A stretch of DNA of 31,960 nt, taken from positions 1-31,960 of the forward strand of contig JAEOTA010000032.1 of assembly GCA_016840085.1 (NCBI GenBank). The letters are read 5' to 3'. Below are positions 20,689 to 24,749 of the stretch, piece after piece. Each line of letters opens with the position of its first letter. Position 1 is the stretch's first letter. The translations under genes and the position numbers were made by a program. The notes under the pieces are model-generated. The model saw nothing but the letters and a program-made list of their open reading frames with translations. It had not been told where the DNA came from and did no database searches. This DNA is from Promethearchaeota archaeon. GTDB lineage: Archaea > Asgardarchaeota > Lokiarchaeia > Sigyniarchaeales > SOKP01.

Positions 20689-20818
20689 AAACACTACAAA
20701 AAGATGTAAATTAATATAAAGGATTAAAATGAAATACAACTTTTAACCATAATTTTTAGATTCTTTTTTTCATTTATAGAGTTAAACTCTTTTTATGAAT
20801 ATTATAAGGTAGATTTAA

Positions 20819-21277
20819 ATTCCTGAACTGGATCAAATTTACAAAGTCCATAAAAACCTATATATAGGAGCTTATTGGCCACGATTAAATTTTAAACGGT
20901 TTAAAGAAATTGGTATAACAGCAATTGTAAATTTGATGGAAGAAAACCTTTATAATCCGACCCATTTAGGCTTTTCATATTTACATAAGGGTTTTTCTGA
21001 TGATACTTACCCACCGCATGAATATTTGGATGAAATTTTAAGTTTTATTGAGGTCCATCTAAAAAACAGTGGAAAGGTTTTAGTACACTGTTCTATGGGA
21101 GTCTCGCGAAGTGGAGGAATAATTGCTGCGTGGTTATTAAAGGAAAATCCAAGTTGGAGTTGGAGGGACACAATTTCTTATATTGGAAAATCTAAATTCA
21201 TAGCACCAGCGGTGGAAATTAGAGAATCTATCCTTGATTATCTCGAAAAAAGTGAACATTATAGAAGACAATATTGA
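20819..21277 (+). CDS. Dual-specificity protein phosphatase (CX5R)
   Basis: VLVHCSMGVSRSG P-loop. The N-terminal DSP motifs (KVHKNLYIGA, GITAIVNL) lie in frame upstream of the track start at 20933, back to ATT 20819. Confidence 0.88.
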   Translation: MPELDQIYKVHKNLYIGAYWPRLNFKRFKEIGITAIVNLMEENLYNPTHLGFSYLHKGFSDDTYPPHEYLDEILSFIEVHLKNSGKVLVHCSMGVSRSGGIIAAWLLKENPSWSWRDTISYIGKSKFIAPAVEIRESILDYLEKSEHYRRQY

Positions 21278-21350
21278 TTGTGTAAATCAGATTTAGATTA
21301 TATAATGACAATACTTTTATTAGAAAAAAAAGGGAATTTAATATTCAGAA

Positions 21351-21581
21351 TTTTTTAATTTTTTTACTTACAAGTTTTCGCTTTCACCATAATTACAATA
21401 TTTATTGTTTTTGAACAATAAATTTTTCGCTTTCACCATTTTCGCTTTCACCATTTTCGCTTTCACCATTTTTAATTTTTTTACTTACAAGTTTTCGCTT
21501 TCACCATAATTACAATATTTATTGTTTTTGAACAATAAATTTTTCGCTTTCATCATAATTACAATATTTATTGTTTTTGAA
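21351..21581. repeat. Patchwork repeat: a ~88-bp direct repeat at 117-bp offset, a 3x15-bp tandem, and two 10-bp-stem hairpins
   Basis: The TTTCGCTTTCACCAT unit occurs 6 times (one variant; three in tandem at 21425-21469). AATTACAATATTTATTGTTTTTGAA occurs 3 times. The ATTTATTGTT-tttg-AACAATAAAT hairpin lies at 21400-21423 and 21517-21540. Confidence 0.95.
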
Positions 21582-22166
21582 TTTATTCCCTTCACAATCT
21601 TCTTCTTCAATACATTCCTCATTTCCCTTTAATATATTCCCCGAAACGATGTTATTATCACTTTCCTGTCCTAAAACTATTCCATAATGAGTATTAGAGT
21701 TTACGAAGTTTCCTGAAATTTTGTTATTATCACAATTTTCAGCGTATATTCCACCATCTCCATTATCACTTGCGTTATTGTCAATTATTAGGCCATTATC
21801 AACATTAGCCAAATGAATTCCATTATTACCTGCGTTATAGAGTGAGCAATTATCGATTTCAAAGTAAACGGCTGAATTTTCAATCCAGATACACCTTCCC
21901 GAACCTCCGCCATCTATTACTAAATCTTCTATAATATAAGGTTTGGATTTAGTACCTTCTCCTGTACATATTCCCGCCGTCTTAACATCAGACCAATTAT
22001 TATCAATATGAATTTTCCCTGATATTTGCGAAAGTTTCACATTTTTGTCTCCTAAATTAATTTCATCGCTATATCCCACAGTTAAATTAAAGTTGTAGTA
22101 AATTATTGTTGATAATGTGAAAATGAATCCTAAAACAATTATTCTTATTTTTAGGTTTAATTTCAT
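21519..22166 (-). CDS. Secreted right-handed beta-helix (NosD/CASH-like) surface protein, probably C-terminally truncated
   Basis: N-terminal hydrophobic segment, IHIDNNWSD...GEGTKSKPYIIEDLVIDG, and repeated GIxL..s.NN.I.GN coils. The 3' end is formed by the repeat. Confidence 0.8.
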   Translation of the reverse strand: MKLNLKIRIIVLGFIFTLSTIIYYNFNLTVGYSDEINLGDKNVKLSQISGKIHIDNNWSDVKTAGICTGEGTKSKPYIIEDLVIDGGGSGRCIWIENSAVYFEIDNCSLYNAGNNGIHLANVDNGLIIDNNASDNGDGGIYAENCDNNKISGNFVNSNTHYGIVLGQESDNNIVSGNILKGNEECIEEEDCEGNKFKNNKYCNYDESEKFIVQKQ

Positions 22167-22257
22167 TCTATTTTCACCAAACTATCATTTTGTAATAATA
22201 AGATTATGATTGACTATATAACTTTTTTGTCGAAAAATATATTCAAGTTAGAAATTA

Positions 22258-22335
22258 ATAGCACCATCGGTGGAAATCAGAGGATCTGTCCTTAATTTTC
22301 TTAAAAAGCGTGATAACCATAGAAGAGAGTATTAA
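22258..22335 (+). pseudogene. Orphan diverged copy of the phosphatase 3' end
   Basis: IAPSVEIRGSVLNFLKKRDNHRREY* versus IAPAVEIRESILDYLEKSEHYRRQY* at 21200-21277; 14/25 residues identical, same length. Confidence 0.85.
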
Positions 22336-22461
22336 ACATTTATTAAAATCTTCTGATATTGATTATTTGATAACTTTTCTTTTACTAAAATATATAAAAC
22401 CAAATTAAGATTATATAATAAAACATAATTTCGTTGTTTTAAATTTTAGAGGAGATGTATT

Positions 22462-22803
22462 TTGTCTGAATTTGAACAAAAAGTATTGAAATTACTTGAA
22501 GAGATTAATAGCAAACTTGATAAAATTTTAAAAGCTGAATCCACTGTAGGAAGTACAGCTAGTACTGTATCAGTATCATCCACACCATCTACAACTGTCA
22601 AACCTTCTGCAGTTGTTGAAAAACAAGAGGAGGAAGCTAAATTAGAGGAGAAACCTCCTGTTGAGGGTCGTAGAGTGTGCCCAGAATGTGGTGGAACTGC
22701 TTTTAATGCGGTAGAAGATAAAACACAAGTGCTACATCAGATGGGTGGCGTCAAGATTTACGCGAAAAAGTATGTCTGTAGAAGTTGTGGACATGAGATG
22801 TAA
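22462..22803 (+). CDS. Small protein: short coiled N-terminus, S/T-rich linker and C-terminal Zn ribbon
   Basis: RRVCPECGG...EDKTQV...KKYVCRSCG; TTG start with AGGAG upstream. Confidence 0.85.
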   Translation: MSEFEQKVLKLLEEINSKLDKILKAESTVGSTASTVSVSSTPSTTVKPSAVVEKQEEEAKLEEKPPVEGRRVCPECGGTAFNAVEDKTQVLHQMGGVKIYAKKYVCRSCGHEM

Positions 22804-22963
22804 ATTTTTTTTATTTATTTCTTTATTTATATTGATACTACACGTAATTCAATCTAAGAATTTATAAACAACTTTTTATATATAAAATTAGTTAGATTTT
22901 TAACATGAACATGCTTACAGTTTTTTATTAAAATTCGAATCAGAAATGATGGTGTACTACTAA

Positions 22964-24049
22964 ATTCCTAAATGGAGAGTAAAAAAGGGGGTTCAATACG
23001 TAAGAAATTTTATATTAAATAATTTCACGAATAGGAAAATTCCTTACTCCGCTCAAATTGAACTAACACTTCGATGTAATGCGAAATGTCCATTTTGTTC
23101 AATACATTCCTTACCAGAATCAATTCTAGGTAAAGATATGACCACTGAACAAATTAAGTATCTAATTGACCAAATTGCTGATTTGGGTGTCTTGGCGCTA
23201 TCATTTACGGGTGGTGAGCCTACTTTAAGAAAAGATCTTCCCGAACTTATATATCACACTGGAGTAGTACATGACTTTTTGAATGGTATAGCTACTAATG
23301 GATATCTTTTGCCAAAACTTTTTAAGGAGAATAAATTGGAAGGTTTGGATTATATTTTACTTTCTCTTGATTATCCTAAGGCAGAACTCCACGATAAAAT
23401 GCGAGGAATTAAAGTTTTTGATAAAGTATTAGAATCTATTGAACTAGCGAATAAGAATGACATAAAAACAATAATTAGCACAGTGGTTATGAAAGATAAT
23501 TTACATTACTTAAAAGATATGGTTGAATTAGCAAGTAAATTAAACTCCTCAATAGAATTATATCCTTGTGAAGATATAATAAGAGACTTTCCTAACCACC
23601 GTTATCAGATTGATGAGATTCATAATTTGATACCAAATGTCTCTATTTGGGCAAATTTAATAAGGACATTAAGAAGACAATATAAGAATATTTTAACAGA
23701 TCCTATAAGTATTGAAGTAGTTGAGAAAGGTGGATTTGGTGGAAATCCGTCATACTTTCAAAAAGCTTTACGTTGTCATGTTGCTGAAGCATATCTATTC
23801 ATAAGTCATGATGGTCTTCTTCATTATCCTTGTAAAATTCATCCTATAGCAAGTTTTAATACGCTTAAACATCCTCTAAAAAAGATATATTATTCACAAC
23901 GAGTAAGAGACATTATGAAAAAGCATGATACTTATAGTTTCTGTGAGAATTGTCGTTTAGGATGCGCTATAGCATCATCAATTCCAACTCGTTGGAAGAC
24001 ACTTTATTTTAAATACATAAGAGGATTCTTGGACGGAAATTTAAGGTGA
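22964..24049 (+). CDS. Radical SAM protein with a C-terminal SPASM/twitch-like Cys cluster (PqqE/PTO1314/HpnH-like architecture)
   Basis: CNAKCPFC (CxxxCxxC) at 23075-23098 lies upstream of the track start at 23138, followed by FTGGEPTLR, ATNG, YPC and CENCRLGC. The exact start is uncertain. Confidence 0.9.
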   Translation: MPKWRVKKGVQYVRNFILNNFTNRKIPYSAQIELTLRCNAKCPFCSIHSLPESILGKDMTTEQIKYLIDQIADLGVLALSFTGGEPTLRKDLPELIYHTGVVHDFLNGIATNGYLLPKLFKENKLEGLDYILLSLDYPKAELHDKMRGIKVFDKVLESIELANKNDIKTIISTVVMKDNLHYLKDMVELASKLNSSIELYPCEDIIRDFPNHRYQIDEIHNLIPNVSIWANLIRTLRRQYKNILTDPISIEVVEKGGFGGNPSYFQKALRCHVAEAYLFISHDGLLHYPCKIHPIASFNTLKHPLKKIYYSQRVRDIMKKHDTYSFCENCRLGCAIASSIPTRWKTLYFKYIRGFLDGNLR

Positions 24050-24140
24050 TAATAAAATAACGAGAGAAATATAGTAGTAGTAAATATATTTTCAAAAATT
24101 TTATTAAAAATACATTTTTTCCTAATATAGTGAATATTTT

Positions 24141-24749
24141 ATGTCGAACGTAGCAGTTATACTTCAAATTCTATTTATAACTATTGGGATGTTCATATTT
24201 GGTATCTTGTTTAATAGGATTTTAGGAATAAGCAAAGAAACGATAAATGAGTTTAGAGAAAAAGCTTTAAACCTACAAGAACGTATGAGAAATGCTCAAG
24301 CATTAGGTGATGCTCAACTTATGGTGCAATTACAACGAGAAACGATGCACTTCACTAAACAGATAATGTTGAAACAATTTATTCCTTTATGTTTAAGATG
24401 CTCCATTTTTATTGGAATCTTTGCTGTTTTAAGTTTTATATATACTGATTATGATAGTGGATTGTTGCCTTTCCCACTTTTATTTTTCGGGAGTGGTTGG
24501 TTTGCACTTTACTTTATTTTTTCAATATCTATTTCATTAATAGCATATGGAGTAAAAAGACTTTATAAGAAACTCACTGGTAAAGATATTAGGACTCAAA
24601 AAGATTTACGAGAGTTAATGCAAATAATGTCTCCTGCGCCTCAAAGATCAGGATTCTCTCTTCCAATGACATGGGGCACTTCCAGAAGTATACAGGAAAA
24701 AGATCAACCTGAAGAAAAAGAAAGTTGGAAAAAACGGATCCAAAACTAA
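24141..24749 (+). CDS. DUF106/EMC3/TMCO1-like (Oxa1 superfamily) membrane insertase homolog
   Basis: TM1, a Met/Gln-rich cytosolic coiled coil, TM2, a PFPL loop and the GWFALYF.FS TM3. Confidence 0.75.
   Translation: MSNVAVILQILFITIGMFIFGILFNRILGISKETINEFREKALNLQERMRNAQALGDAQLMVQLQRETMHFTKQIMLKQFIPLCLRCSIFIGIFAVLSFIYTDYDSGLLPFPLLFFGSGWFALYFIFSISISLIAYGVKRLYKKLTGKDIRTQKDLRELMQIMSPAPQRSGFSLPMTWGTSRSIQEKDQPEEKESWKKRIQN

Follow-up and report, generated by a model that had tools for sequence, protein, structure and literature searches.

Introduction

Starts at ATT, ATA or ATC are used regularly in the AT-rich genomes of mitochondria and Mollicutes (NCBI tables 2, 4 and 5). In archaea, initiation has been described as using AUG, GUG and UUG, with the initiation factor aIF1 rejecting AUU (PMC4705826). 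In bacteria, the initiation factor IF3 controls its own AUU-started gene, infC, by autoregulation (PMC4705826). For Asgard archaea, the full-text literature gave no systematic report of ATT starts, and the only case found was a single, rare ATT start proposed for the Kariarchaeaceae tubulin AtubA (bioRxiv 10.64898/2026.02.15.705738). Herein, a stretch of 31,960 nucleotides from a Promethearchaeota archaeon (the window; contig JAEOTA010000032.1 of assembly GCA_016840085.1) was analyzed. Two of its genes, one for a dual-specificity phosphatase and one for a radical SAM/SPASM enzyme, open with ATT and lack a canonical start codon ahead of their conserved domains.

The source is a metagenome-assembled genome (MAG) of 4.68 Mb with 29.5% G+C, scored 98.8% complete. 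Comparison of this genome with its relatives makes it highly probable that both genes are intact, are translated from AUU behind a Shine-Dalgarno (SD) motif, and are instances of a habit of the lineage. They appear to be well-conserved instances, and the habit is absent from the literature searched.

Two reading frames open at ATT

The phosphatase frame is located at 20819-21277 on the forward strand and contains 152 codons plus a stop. It is bounded by TAA at 20816-20818 and opens with ATT (20819-20821), the proposed start, followed by CCT (20822-20824). No ATG, GTG or TTG is found over its initial 38 codons, and the earliest canonical codon is TTG 20933 (codon 39), followed by ATG 20936. Pfam DSPc (PF00782) was matched on residues 15-139 (E 5.8e-18, 65.4 bits against a cut-off of 33.5), and the CX5R P-loop of the phosphatase is found at 21089-21109 (HCSMGVSRS, 21086-21112).

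The radical SAM frame, on the same strand at 22964-24049, contains 361 codons plus a stop. TAA at 22961-22963 is again followed by ATT (22964-22966), the proposed start, and CCT (22967-22969). ATG, GTG and TTG are missing from the initial 58 codons, the earliest being ATG 23138 (codon 59). Pfam Radical_SAM (PF04055) was matched on residues 32-190 (E 8e-29, 101.4 bits against a cut-off of 29.5), and SPASM (PF13186) was marginal at the C-terminus (21.8 bits against 21.5). The CxxxCxxC motif (C38/C42/C45; 23075-23098) lies ahead of ATG 23138. Within NCBIfam, no equivalog scored above cut-off for either enzyme; the radical SAM enzyme gave only sub-threshold MoaA/PqqE-like matches.

The location of these domains supports initiation at AUU, because CxxxCxxC (residues 38-45) lies before codon 59 and the DSPc domain, from residue 15, begins before codon 39. 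A hexamer model trained on the same genome scored both leaders as coding-like, at +25 bits for the phosphatase and +16 bits for the radical SAM gene. The features on which the sequence-only reading had based its proposal of ATT initiation, namely the TAA-ATT-CCT openings, the stretches of 38 and 58 codons free of canonical starts, the AGGT and GGTG motifs and the two short upstream open reading frames (uORFs), were all found as described. Its expectation that gene callers would miss these starts was also correct: the public calls, made on independent assemblies of three sequencing runs, are 113 aa for the phosphatase and 303 aa, without the cluster motif, for the radical SAM enzyme.

The proposed start codon is conserved in related genomes

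The relatives used for comparison are deposited as Promethearchaeota or Promethearchaeia (Loki-type Asgard archaea). Across 23 genomes of its genus, the radical SAM gene has orthologs with open frames of 360-362 aa, each preceded by a stop and opening with ATT CCN. A wider scan of species-level genomes gave 41 full-length orthologs with 55-96% aa identity. The homologous codon is ATT in 40 of them and ATG (ATG CCG, locus L103) in the remaining one. GGTG begins at -13 in 29/41 and at -12 in 6/41, or 35/41 together. In 20 of the 41 orthologs, no ATG, GTG or TTG is present from the upstream stop through CxxxCxxC.

A codon-level control was performed with 20 aligned radical SAM genes. The start ATT was invariant in 20/20, and all 13 other columns of invariant Ile varied among ATT, ATA and ATC. 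A single codon was kept in only 6 of the 153 columns with an invariant residue. Since the start ATT does not change while other Ile codons drift, the constraint is on the nucleotides and not on an Ile codon.

For the phosphatase, 19 orthologs within the genus were compared. The codon homologous to ATT 20819 is ATT in 10, ATG in 5, GTT in 2, ATA in 1 and unclear in 1. The orthologs with ATG exactly at this position begin with MTDLDQIY, MPDLDQVY or MTEMDQIY. The ATA-type ortholog sits behind AGGTGG, and AAGG-TAG is conserved upstream in the ATT-type orthologs. The second codon varies among Pro, Ser, Thr, Ala and Ile. The retention of ATT at the homologous position of the orthologs, or its exchange for ATG, further supports initiation at AUU in both genes; this comparison of orthologs was the check suggested by the sequence-only reading, and its proposal of ATT starts passed it.

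The region directly upstream was also compared. A stop codon is located directly 5' of the ATT (-3 to -1) in 30/41 radical SAM orthologs, and the GTG within GGTG is mostly in frame. The spacer ahead of the radical SAM ATT differs in sequence among the orthologs (L009-L028, L072-L114), yet it nearly always holds a stop.

The ribosome-binding site and the TAA-ATT-CCT context

The 3' end of the 16S rRNA of this genome is GGATCACCTCCT, which gives an SD consensus of AGGAGGTGATCC. The SD-like AGGTAGA of the phosphatase is located at 20807-20813. Its AGGT (20807-20810), which matches the consensus, begins 12 nt 5' of ATT 20819. The GGTG of the radical SAM gene (22951-22954) begins 13 nt 5' of ATT 22964 and is complementary to the CACC of the 16S 3' end. 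For 1780 ATG starts assigned with confidence, the first base of GGTG lies between -14 and -9, and that of AGGT between -15 and -10, its modal position. The AGGT at -12 and the GGTG at -13 both fall within the ranges of the ATG starts.

The context common to the two genes was searched genome-wide. Of 463 matches to TA[AG]ATTCC[TA], only 10 stand at the opening of a frame of at least 80 codons. TAAATTCCT was thus rejected as a general start signature. A stop at -3 to -1 is equally common before ATG starts (12%), and a second codon of CCT is not enriched among the 72 other SD-led candidates described below. The variable second codon of the phosphatase orthologs indicates that the CCT common to both genes is most likely a coincidence. 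The identical TAA-ATT-CCT of the two genes is therefore probably in part a product of chance. What goes beyond chance is the SD, its spacing, and an ATT that is conserved across genomes.

Several other upstream sequences were observed. GTAGATTTAAATTCCT occurs both in the leader of the phosphatase gene here and in that of the radical SAM gene in a second genome (L012). Conserved blocks containing TTAGATT and then a T-rich run are found upstream of both genes (20756-20780 and about 22885-22935) and at the orthologous loci; the phosphatase block reads TTTTTAGATTCTTTTTTCATTTATAG and the radical SAM block AGTTAGATTTTTAA...CTTTAAATTCTTAAT. These blocks could be a promoter or a regulator site common to both conserved neighbors.

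Candidate non-canonical starts in the whole genome

Across the genome, 4001 frames that are coding-like and 100 codons or longer were scanned for ATT, ATA and ATC, collectively ATH. At least 20 coding-like codons precede any canonical start in 335 of the frames. In these long-leader frames, the SD ahead of the first ATH peaks at -14 to -9, and control codons show no peak. Within the first 15 codons of the 335 frames, an SD tetramer precedes 11.5% of ATH codons against 6.2% of other codons (odds ratio 2.0, p 6e-7), which amounts to some 41 sites in excess. Among the ATG genes, only about one in five carries an SD tetramer; by rough extrapolation from this low share, the true number of ATH starts may be 100 or more. 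Over the whole genome, genes with an SD and an ATH start, aIF1 among them, are put at no fewer than about 40 and may number a few hundred.

Besides the two genes, 72 individual SD-led ATH candidates were listed. Of 10 candidates checked with Pfam, 3 were confirmed. One is a short-chain dehydrogenase with an ATA start (G000:C72:24762-25559), with a Pfam domain from residue 13 and a first canonical codon at 79. Another is a GPN-loop GTPase with an ATT start (G000:C78:34831-35604), with a domain from residue 6 and a first canonical codon at 24. The third is an enoyl-CoA hydratase with an ATT start (G000:C19:271320-272144), whose domain begins before the first canonical codon. Each of the three starts is behind GGTGA, GAGGT or GGAG.

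The sole SUI1/aIF1 gene of the genome (G000:C81:64195-64518, locus L061) is a 107-codon frame with the SUI1 domain from codon 28. The first ATG, GTG or TTG of this frame is at codon 60, and codon 3 is ATT. This frame suggests that aIF1, which proofreads start codons, is itself translated from a non-canonical start. In the whole genome, Aragorn detected no more than 13 tRNA genes, most of them with predicted introns. Split tRNA genes, introns in atypical places or incomplete assembly of these genes may account for this low number.

Points against initiation at AUU and alternative explanations

Several observations weigh against translation of the two genes from AUU. In vitro, the aIF1 known from archaea (Sulfolobus) rejects AUU (PMC4705826). 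When SD pentamers were pooled over every pre-start ATT of the genome, no significant enrichment was seen (p 0.10); the SD signal emerges only after limiting the test to frames whose coding-like leaders are long. The compared genomes are related and are thus not independent of each other. In 12 of the 41 radical SAM orthologs, an ATG is also present at codon 4, and in those 12 genomes it could serve instead of or besides the ATT. This codon is the start of the sister-family orthologs (MTRLNY...), which marks the ATT-Pro-X extension and its SD as a trait of the present clade. In the family that has single-contig genomes, the radical SAM gene starts at ATG. Finally, an AGGT is located 10 nt 5' of the internal ATG 23138 in this genome; it is present in only 15/41 orthologs, and ATG 23138 itself encodes a conserved Met residue.

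Coupled reinitiation was considered as an alternative. Ribosomes would translate a mini-ORF, either MNIIR* (20795-20812, upstream of the phosphatase), MMVYY* (22946-22963, upstream of the radical SAM gene) or one beginning at the GTG in GGTG, and would restart at the ATT without a fresh SD-led initiation. Each gene indeed has an in-frame mini-ORF that ends at or near its ATT, and the TAA of MMVYY* abuts ATT 22964. The radical SAM orthologs, with their mostly in-frame GTG and abutting stop, also fit this explanation. However, the mini-ORF ATG is missing from most orthologs of either gene, and that of MNIIR* was found in only 3 ATT-type phosphatase orthologs. The peptides are not conserved, and their frame and length vary. 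Several of the more distant radical SAM orthologs have an 8-nt spacer, which places the GTG out of frame, or no intervening stop. The GGTG is the SD itself and has no SD of its own, and a stop at -3 to -1 is as frequent before ordinary ATG starts. Reinitiation, which the sequence-only reading had offered beside regular ATT initiation, is therefore considered very unlikely.

A start at another near-cognate codon (CTG 20828 or ATT 20837), or a leaderless start by transcription from the ATT itself, is given a similarly slim chance. CTG 20828 is in frame, and AT-rich TATA-like boxes upstream would permit several transcript starts. On the other side, the ATG-bearing phosphatase orthologs put their ATG at the position of 20819, and the conserved distance from the SD favors 20819 and 22964. 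CTG 20828, which had been named as a candidate start of the phosphatase, was rejected: the codon is not conserved, and the Leu at this position is encoded by CTG, CTA, TTG or TTA among the orthologs.

Starts at the earliest canonical codons (ATG 23138 in the radical SAM gene, and TTG 20933 or ATG 20936 in the phosphatase gene), with the upstream frame untranslated, would agree with the 303-aa and 113-aa products of the public assemblies and with the AGGT ahead of ATG 23138. The 303-aa product is without CxxxCxxC, however, and the 113-aa product is without the opening quarter of the DSP domain. In the upstream codons, the encoded protein sequence is kept while synonymous positions drift, and the internal SD is not conserved. 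A canonical start is thus highly improbable.

Least credible is an assembly error or a pseudogene, by a nonsense change at 22961 or by an indel in the A6G5 run without which ATG 22972 (MESKKG) would be joined to the frame, both raised by the sequence-only reading. The sequence does contain an ATG at 22972, out of frame, and the homopolymer run, and the genome is a MAG. These readings were nevertheless rejected: some 40 independent genomes share the frame and the stop-ATT-CCN opening and have no such ATG or run, the orthologs hold the frame through this region with a different sequence, no ortholog reads through the stop, and the gene spacing is unchanged in independent assemblies of three sequencing runs. 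Purifying selection is indicated by open frames that are 360-362 aa long and 69-91% identical.

The surrounding locus

Between the two genes, at 22462-22803 on the forward strand, lies the gene of a zinc-ribbon protein, a conserved neighbor with a TTG start behind GGAG. The protein is also 113 aa in the public assembly calls. It has a Ser/Thr-rich linker and a C-terminal CPxCG...CxxCG, and its gene is directly upstream of the radical SAM/SPASM gene. The zinc-ribbon protein could be a substrate or a partner of the radical SAM/SPASM enzyme. Directly downstream of the radical SAM gene, at 24126-24749, is a homolog of the EMC3/TMCO1-like membrane insertases (Pfam E 8e-6, just under the cut-off), a eukaryote-like family.

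An 82-nt segment from the very end of the phosphatase gene (21194-21275) recurs with 79% identity at 22252-22333, 1058 nt downstream. The two copies flank an inserted segment that contains a minus-strand beta-helix/NosD-like gene at 21519-22181 (Pfam Beta_helix 3.7e-15) and 88-nt direct repeats (21352-21605). In other genomes, the distance from the phosphatase gene to the zinc-ribbon gene is only about 0.3-0.8 kb. The segment flanked by the 82-nt repeats looks like an insertion with target duplication.

Discussion

In the proposed mechanism, the SD-like motif (AGGU in the phosphatase mRNA and GGUG in the radical SAM mRNA) would place the small ribosomal subunit with AUU in the P site. The initiator Met-tRNA would read AUU via a mismatch at the third position, and both proteins would begin with Met-Pro. 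The weak codon may lower the output, or may tie the output to the level of aIF1. Control linked to aIF1 appears plausible, given that archaeal aIF1 rejects AUU and bacterial IF3 controls itself via AUU. Within this Loki-type (Promethearchaeota) lineage, a few percent of the genes would start at AUU, AUA or AUC.

A wider proposal is put forward tentatively, with somewhat less than even confidence. A genus or more would start 1-6% of its genes, aIF1 included, at AUU, AUA or AUC. The identity of the start codon would then be a tuned control point, for example in genes whose output follows the level of aIF1. The strict retention of AUU in 40 genomes in the case of the radical SAM gene, never replaced by AUA or AUC, suggests such a tuned start codon.

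Practical consequences follow for sequence databases. Public protein sets hold both enzymes in shortened form, probably together with at least 100 other proteins per genome in this lineage. The stored radical SAM enzyme is without its iron-sulfur motif. Such truncation biases domain counts and structure predictions, as well as comparisons between Asgard proteomes. Gene finders used on Asgard MAGs should permit ATT, ATA and ATC behind an SD. The retention of AUU starts over tens of millions of years, in genes of ordinary enzymes and in that of aIF1 itself, would imply relaxed or regulated fidelity of initiation. The lineage provides a concrete system for studying the evolution of start-codon stringency near the root of the eukaryotes.

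Comparison with known systems

AtubA resembles the two genes in that it comes from an Asgard archaeon, its deposited protein is N-terminally truncated, and an upstream ATT at a plausible ribosome-binding-site distance restores the fold. It is a single anecdotal case from another Asgard class, without conservation or genome-wide analysis. The report on ebpA of Enterococcus faecalis (PMC4447247) describes an ATT start 5' of the annotated ATG, with a rare codon that attenuates expression. That report concerns a single bacterial gene with experimental proof, whereas the evidence here is comparative only.

The infC (IF3) and pcnB genes of E. coli share three properties with the proposed starts of this locus: SD-led initiation at AUU by the initiator tRNA, a weak start codon conserved at the nucleotide level, and a start missed by gene finders restricted to ATG, GTG and TTG. 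The system here differs in being archaeal, with aIF1 instead of IF3 as the fidelity factor. The genes here encode ordinary enzymes and not an initiation factor, and many such genes are found rather than rare exceptions. Mitochondria and Mollicutes are alike in their AT-rich genomes and in the ATH starts of a sizeable share of their genes. Their translation machinery is reduced and their codes are changed, whereas the archaeon studied here is free-living, keeps the standard code and uses SD-led initiation.

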